Source: Escherichia coli (lineage in GTDB: Bacteria; Pseudomonadota; Gammaproteobacteria; Enterobacterales; Enterobacteriaceae). From it: a stretch of DNA of 64,000 nucleotides. Each line of letters opens with the position of its first letter. Position 1 is the stretch's first letter. The notes under the pieces are model-generated. The model was not told the origin of the DNA. It worked only from the letters and a program-made list of their open reading frames with translations, and did no database searches. The DNA is taken from assembly GCF_016026235.1 (NCBI RefSeq), contig NZ_CP065613.1; one strand, 5' to 3'. Both the position numbers and the translations under genes were made by a program. This document shows, piece after piece, positions 44,430 to 44,792 of the stretch.

Positions 44430-44644
44430 AGTGATTCTCCGTGTCTGTGTATTTATGGTGTCTGCTACGGATCGCAGATTTATAAAGCACATTCAGCATG
44501 GCAAATATTTGCCGCTTCGTTGTTAAGATTAGTCCTAGTTGATGATTTTTATATTTTAACTCCATGATATTCATAGGGATTGTGATTGGTATGATCCGAT
44601 TAATATTGATACAATATCTTTTGGGTTATATATTCCCGGTAATC

Positions 44645-44680
44645 TATTGTGGGAATTTAATTTATTGTGGGAATTTAATT
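44645..44680. repeat. Perfect 18-bp tandem direct repeat (TATTGTGGGAATTTAATT x2) in the divergent bdm-osmC promoter region
   Basis: Read directly: ...aatcTATTGTGGGAATTTAATTTATTGTGGGAATTTAATTtaag..., about 115-150 bp upstream of the osmC ATG. Confidence 0.6.
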
Positions 44681-44792
44681 TAAGTACAGAAGTAATATTT
44701 CTGCCGGATTTTTATTCGGAATATCCTGCTTATCCTCGTGCTGTTTCTCACGTAGTCTATAATTTCCTTTTTAAGCCCACAGGAGAGCAACA

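Follow-up and report, generated by a model that had tools for sequence, protein, structure and literature searches.

The bdm-osmC intergenic region and its 18-bp repeat

The window, i.e. the whole 64-kb stretch of Escherichia coli DNA that was analysed, carries maeA, sra and bdm on the minus strand, followed by osmC on the plus strand and, beyond osmC, by ddpF. According to the list of open reading frames and the RefSeq annotation of orthologous loci, bdm (44214-44429, minus strand; 71 aa) is the first gene of the divergent bdm-sra unit, sra lies at 43975-44112 (minus strand), and osmC (44793-45224, plus strand; 143 aa) encodes the peroxiredoxin OsmC. The annotation thus bears out the gene context given in the original prediction, that is, a region shared by osmC and the divergently transcribed bdm-sra unit. 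The intergenic region (44430-44792) is 363 bp long, compared with 344 bp in K-12, the difference being made up of an 18-bp duplication and one extra T in a run at about 44706-44710. An alignment of E. coli sequences showed that the two ends of the region are nearly invariant and that its centre is variable and AT-rich: 5 of 128 columns vary in the bdm-proximal segment and 3 of 81 in the osmC-proximal segment, as against 28 of 85 in the central left and 8 of 22 in the central right segment. The central spacer is 72% AT, and the AT-richest 100 bp of the locus (44600-44699, GC 0.24) contain the repeat.

The repeat consists of two perfect, adjacent, head-to-tail copies of the 18-bp unit TATTGTGGGAATTTAATT, as read directly from the sequence. 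Copy 1 (44645-44662) is the extra one relative to K-12 and copy 2 (44663-44680) aligns with the single K-12 copy, although the sequence does not distinguish which of the two is the newer. Both lie inside the interval 44640-44690, for which a perfect 18-bp tandem duplication had been predicted, and the local order is ...CCCGG TAATC TATTGTGGGAATTTAATT TATTGTGGGAATTTAATT TAAGTACAG..., the junction newly made by the duplication reading AATTTATTGT. The unit is 78% A+T. The array is located 113-148 bp upstream of the osmC ATG, in close agreement with the 115-150 bp estimated originally; relative to the ATG of the divergent bdm it is 216-251 bp upstream. Tandem Repeats Finder reported it as 44640-44682 with a period of 18, 2.4 copies, 96% matches and a score of 79, where the additional 0.4 copy corresponds to the imperfect TAATC preceding copy 1.

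Only two tandem repeats were found in the 64-kb window, and that between bdm and osmC is the higher scoring. A pattern search for the unit allowing up to three mismatches returned the two perfect copies and one match with three mismatches at 34563-34580 (0.09 expected in shuffles), which is probably a coincidence. The other tandem repeat of the window (34771-34809; period 20, 1.9 copies, 89% matches with indels) is situated near this match.

Distribution and origin of the two-copy allele

K-12 MG1655 has one copy of the unit, and in the alignment of intergenic regions the window differs from it by a clean 18-bp insertion. The exact 18-bp gap was present in all eight one-copy strains aligned, which had been drawn from across the identity range. 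Among 5,426 complete E. coli genomes, 35 (~0.65%) carry two copies, as judged by a full match to a 66-bp query spanning the junction; no three-copy allele was found in this set, the next-best matches covering 53% of the query. For the divergent B2/E-type haplotype, where the 66-bp query cannot seed, an artificial sequence of that type with two copies was constructed as a query; it matched one-copy genomes only, so that no two-copy allele was detected on the B2-type haplotype. A search of the JGI metagenome contigs for the junction gave no match either. It had been considered at the outset that K-12 and most relatives might carry the same two copies, in which case the duplication would be the ordinary architecture of the promoter region. 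With one copy in K-12 and two in 35 of 5,426 genomes this is not so, and the arrangement is therefore a real and rare variant of E. coli and does not represent the usual architecture. A sequencing or assembly artefact is excluded for practical purposes, because the identical junction is carried by 35 independently assembled complete genomes. The two-copy allele is thus present in public genomes and has apparently gone undescribed.

The anatomy of the repeat points to how the second copy arose. Immediately at the left, the motif TAATCTA (44640-44646) matches in six of seven bases the sequence TAATTTA, which occurs 18 bp later (44658-44664) and a second time at 44676-44682. That is, in the one-copy allele TAATCTA stands on the left and TAATTTA at the right end of the unit, exactly 18 bp apart. 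Short direct repeats flanking a unit are a classic substrate for slipped-strand mispairing, which results in a precise tandem duplication. Slippage between the imperfect 7-bp repeats TAATCTA and TAATTTA, or an equivalent microhomology-mediated event, would yield the 18-bp tandem duplication and is, on the anatomy of the repeat, the most likely mechanism. Every two-copy allele examined has the left context GGTAATC, and several other haplotypes have GGTTATC in its place, which weakens the homology.

In these respects the repeat resembles the slippage duplications that make up ordinary bacterial indels: the copies are likewise perfect and head-to-tail, the unit is bracketed by TAATnTA motifs at an AT-rich non-coding site, and the one-copy state is likewise that of the reference and of ~99% of strains. 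There is no essential difference, the points of note being the setting in a well-studied stress-promoter region and the occurrence on several haplotypes. The repeat also shares with the contingency loci of Neisseria and Haemophilus its place in a promoter region, where a change in copy number alters the spacing of elements. However, those loci contain long arrays of short units between or beside the -35 and -10 elements, with copy numbers that vary among close relatives, whereas the osmC repeat comprises one or two 18-bp units far upstream of the core promoter and its two-copy form reaches only 0.65%. A phase-variable contingency repeat was rejected, given that copy number is only one or two in the 5,426 genomes and that eight cattle and STEC strains share the two-copy state with flanks that are 99.9-100% identical.

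The 35 two-copy strains represent at least four intergenic haplotypes. SNP counts for the two flanks of the repeat (1.7 kb on the left, 1.6 kb on the right) gave a mosaic pattern among two-copy strains. The window is nearest to strain 2014C-3011 on the left (6 SNPs), and on the right it is 20-31 SNPs away from every other strain compared. The two-copy strain TUM9757 differs by 5-8 SNPs from the one-copy strains K-12 and 21EVA on both flanks. Three of the other four two-copy sequences are 13-31 SNPs away from it, with only 3 SNPs separating it from RM11911 on the right flank; RM11911, also two-copy, is in turn 3 SNPs from K-12 on that flank. Searches with longer queries gave a similar picture. 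A 3.3-kb query from one two-copy haplotype, haplotype (c), had its best matches, 99.9-100% identical, in the eight cattle and STEC strains; one-copy genomes followed at ~99.0-99.1% (counting the 18-bp gap), ahead of the remaining two-copy groups, which align without a gap at 98.7-99.0%. The same search was run with haplotype (b), and here too the two-copy alleles lie on mosaic flanks, some of them nearer to one-copy strains than to each other. When the 8.6 kb left of the repeat were compared, the only strains close to the window (99.9%) were FDAARGOS_943 and EC2641, each with two copies, the rest being at 98.7% or below.

The two-copy strains thus do not make up a single clean local lineage. 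Since they sit on mosaic haplotypes, recurrent slippage, recombinational spread, or both would be needed to account for their distribution, and either process would fit the flank pattern.

The spacer haplotype of the window is itself a mosaic, K-12-like to the left of the repeat and bearing variants of the AMSHJX01/KKo009 type from 6 bp to its right, namely A at 44686, CT for TC at 44701-44702 and the one extra T at about 44706-44710. No one-copy genome is nearer to this haplotype than five differences, and the intergenic haplotype of the window looks recombinant. In many strains (e.g. H269 and H272-H282, as well as the two-copy FDAARGOS_943) an IS1 element lies within the orthologous 3.3-kb maeA-ddpF stretch, which then spans ~4.1 kb and aligns in two to three pieces.

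Relation of the repeat to regulatory elements

The osmC gene has two overlapping promoters and is controlled by RpoS, H-NS and Lrp (PMC7285182). The sites at which NhaR and RcsB act on osmCp1 overlap, according to the title of Sturny 2003 (cited in PMC6307784), and bdm is described as RcsB-activated in PMC3599342, which cites Francez-Charlot 2005 on this point. RcsB homodimer sites are usually positioned directly upstream of the -35 element (PMC5651002). Genomic SELEX identified the bdm-sra/osmC spacer of K-12 as a binding region of the RpoD holoenzyme containing H-NS sites (Shimada et al. 2014; PMC3946193, Table 1). The belief, voiced in the original prediction, that the osmC and bdm promoters are under RcsB and H-NS/Lrp control is thus in line with a literature that names RcsB, NhaR, H-NS and Lrp (PMC7285182; PMC3599342; PMC3946193; PMC6307784).

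We scanned for RcsB-type boxes with the Salmonella-derived consensus TN(G/A)GAN4TC(T/C)NA (PMC7913699), allowing up to two mismatches. The sole perfect match is a bdm-side box, TAAGATTAGTCCTA (44524-44537), located 107 bp to the left of the repeat and conserved in C. amalonaticus and S. arizonae. An osmC-side box, TCGGAATATCCTGC (44716-44729), has two mismatches to the consensus and is separated from the right end of the repeat by 35 bp. Judging from its sequence, this segment is probably the RcsB/NhaR region beside the -35 element of osmCp1. The osmC core promoter -10 region, GTCTATAAT (44755-44763, plus strand), in the area of the overlapping osmCp1 and osmCp2, is invariant across the E. coli alignment and is kept as GTCTATACT in Citrobacter and Salmonella; the repeat ends ~75 bp before it, and the duplication leaves it unchanged. 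Indeed both RcsB-type boxes and both core promoters are untouched by the duplication, and a promoter scan detected no strong sigma-70 promoter-like site created across the new junction. The locus corresponds to the osmC control region of K-12, which H-NS and Lrp repress. It shares with K-12 a conserved core promoter, RcsB-type box and coding sequence, as well as the divergent partner bdm-sra, which has an RcsB-type box of its own; it differs from K-12 by the 18 extra bp upstream of the promoter-proximal sites and by a few flanking SNPs, including one at 44537.

This last SNP, a change from G to A that is also found in TUM9757, turns the bdm-side box into the perfect consensus TAAGATTAGTCCTA, the K-12 box ending in G, and could strengthen activation of bdm by RcsB. 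A further RcsB-box-like sequence with one mismatch, TTGGTATGATCCGA (44586-44599), is present in the variable left spacer and is not conserved in B2-type haplotypes.

The effects of the duplication that are certain are an increase in spacing of 18 bp (~1.7 helical turns) and the addition of 18 bp of AT-rich DNA. The proposal of a spacing change thus holds in a trivial sense, 18 bp having been added between the bdm-side and the osmC-side elements. The spacer combines a high A+T content (72% in the centre, 78% in the repeat) with H-NS binding reported for its K-12 counterpart (PMC3946193). The duplication lengthens this spacer by 18 bp of 78% A+T DNA and moves the bdm-side elements by 18 bp, ~1.7 helical turns, away from the osmC promoter, and conversely. 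The footprint of NhaR or Lrp may reach the promoter-proximal copy of the repeat. Expression of osmC or bdm would most likely change little or not at all, with a modest shift in H-NS/Lrp-dependent silencing as the upper limit; that is, the effect on expression is probably small.

Considering the structure and rarity of the repeat, the one-copy state of the reference, the microhomology and the position relative to the motifs, we regard it as likely, and hold with reasonable confidence, that the duplication is a rare natural length polymorphism, generated by slippage in an AT-rich spacer, which doubles no recognisable operator and is near-neutral. The slippage mechanism and near-neutrality are the inferred parts of this reading, and near-neutrality is probable. 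As it stands the duplication would matter little, being one more slippage indel in an AT-rich intergenic spacer. All the same, it provides a natural experiment, namely an exact 18-bp (1.7-turn) insertion between two divergent, RcsB-activated and H-NS-influenced stress promoters, and the allele could be used for asking whether upstream spacing or extra AT-rich DNA affects the silencing of osmC and bdm.

The main alternative is a functional, cis-regulatory role of the duplication. In the E. coli alignment, the 18-mer and the 9 bp that follow it form a conserved island inside the variable spacer: 2 of 27 columns vary there, whereas the remainder of the central spacer has 36 variable columns out of 107 (Fisher p = 0.0075). 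This conservation hints at a site so far unrecognised, of which the duplication would make two. If the island were a binding or nucleation site, for example for H-NS, Lrp or an upstream NhaR contact, its doubling, or the ~0.7-turn phase shift, would alter the silencing or activation of osmC and/or bdm and could have been selected in some lineages. The H-NS binding reported for the spacer (PMC3946193), the regulation of osmC by H-NS and Lrp (PMC7285182), and the presence of the allele on several backgrounds, including the cattle/STEC cluster with its identical 3.3-kb flanks, are all consistent with such a function; selection, and not recurrent slippage alone, could explain why several haplotypes carry the duplication. 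Weak matches to the Lrp consensus (4 of 15 positions mismatched) overlap the repeat. The new junction (minus strand, ACAATAAATT) also agrees in eight of ten positions with the high-affinity motif of H-NS. However, scans with the Lrp, IHF, Fis, CRP and H-NS consensus sequences produced only weak matches typical of AT-rich DNA and no better than expected of it, so these matches are no evidence of binding. The frequency of the allele is moreover only 0.65%, and no three-copy alleles exist in the genomes searched. Outside E. coli the conservation of the 18-mer collapses. Phylogenetic footprinting across genera drew on osmC loci from 80 species, of which only four retain the divergent bdm-osmC arrangement, making for a shallow test; in these four loci little more than a GTGG core of the 18-mer is left, with a 5-bp deletion inside the unit in locus L015, unlike the bdm-side RcsB box and the osmC -10 region, which are well conserved. 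The activator sites, which adjoin the osmC -35 element, to the right of the repeat, also count against this explanation. On balance we consider a functional cis-regulatory variant possible but unlikely.

A stronger version of the argument holds that the ~27-bp island, TATTGTGGGAATTTAATTTAAGTRCAG, is an undescribed bdm/osmC element, either a nucleation or binding site for H-NS, Lrp or another factor or the 5′ end of a distal osmC transcript pairing with the ribosome-binding region, and that its duplication is both recurrent and selected. We judge this to be quite improbable. If true, the way in which certain livestock-associated and STEC lineages express osmC and bdm under osmotic and envelope stress would be retuned by the duplication, and, were the island a real binding site, the two-copy allele would serve to identify it.

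The involvement of a distal transcript is doubtful to a still greater degree. A sigma-70 promoter-like sequence, TTGATA-17-TATATT (44606-44634, plus strand; 10 of 12 matches), ends 10 bp before the repeat and would start transcription at about 44641, so that the repeat would be at the 5′ end of a transcribed leader. It is the best-match promoter in the osmC direction within the RpoD-holoenzyme SELEX peak (PMC3946193, Table 1), as a computational match and not a mapped start. In such a leader, TTGTGGG, contained in each copy (44647-44653 and 44665-44671), could pair with the complementary CCCACAG at about 44775-44781, adjoining the osmC Shine-Dalgarno sequence on its 5′ side, and a second partner would be supplied by the duplication. 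The pairing of TTGTGGG with CCCACAG was indeed predicted by ViennaRNA for both alleles, but these differ little in their fold or in how accessible the Shine-Dalgarno sequence is predicted to be (0.25 versus 0.38). Furthermore, promoter-like matches are no more numerous in the region than in shuffles, no start is documented at the distal site, and the described osmC promoters are osmCp1 and osmCp2, near 44755-44775. A 7-bp complementarity within 170 nt easily arises by chance; it would be relevant only with a distal transcript and is probably fortuitous. No covariation was seen in other species (four divergent loci). Likewise, a scan of positions 43900-45400 with the Rfam 15 covariance models found nothing over the repeat, two sub-threshold chance matches being located elsewhere in the interval. 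We therefore attach very little probability to a leader RNA element.

Even less probable is a duplicated operator for RcsB or another known activator, i.e. two sites for the same regulator; the original prediction had named a duplicated operator as one possibility. The left half of the unit, TGGGAAT, does resemble the RcsB half-site TN(G/A)GA. Nevertheless, even with two mismatches allowed the 18-mer gave no match to the full RcsB box, since it lacks the TC(T/C)NA half and has only the half-site-like TGGGA; the actual boxes lie elsewhere in the spacer, both outside the repeat. The location is also unfavourable, since RcsB sites usually abut the -35 element (PMC5651002) whereas the repeat is separated by at least ~80 bp from the osmC core promoter downstream of it and by over 100 bp from the bdm-side box. 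For recognisable sites, the idea of a doubled operator is thus unsupported, and on sequence grounds the repeat is not a duplicated recognisable operator. Finally, although the length of the duplication is a multiple of three and it falls inside a hydrophobic ORF (44564-44683, plus strand; 39 aa here and 33 aa in K-12), an in-frame insertion of six codons into a small protein gene has next to no likelihood and this ORF was rejected as a gene, there being no Shine-Dalgarno sequence upstream of it and a stop after 11 codons in five other haplotypes (AMSHJX01, APEC O1, O157, EH01-18 and 4973).

Decay of the neighbouring ddp operon

None of the best 50 complete-genome matches contained the 8.6-kb right flank of the window in one uninterrupted piece. 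In the window, the start region of ddpD is joined directly to the interior of dosC (47140-47190, with the junction at about 47166). In a BLAST comparison with strain XJ55 (L094), window positions 44700-47166 corresponded to 1-2467 and positions 47166-53020 to 7181-13030, the split at 47166 indicating that ddpC, ddpB, ddpA, ddpX, dosP and the 3′ part of dosC are absent. In addition, ddpF (45280-46206, minus strand) has an in-frame stop at codon 119 (45850-45852). With both the ddpF stop and the ddpD-dosC deletion, the ddp operon is decayed in this strain. In KKo009, APEC O1 and EH01-18 (L009, L010 and L012, respectively) osmC is followed directly by dosP, which means that the whole ddp operon is absent.
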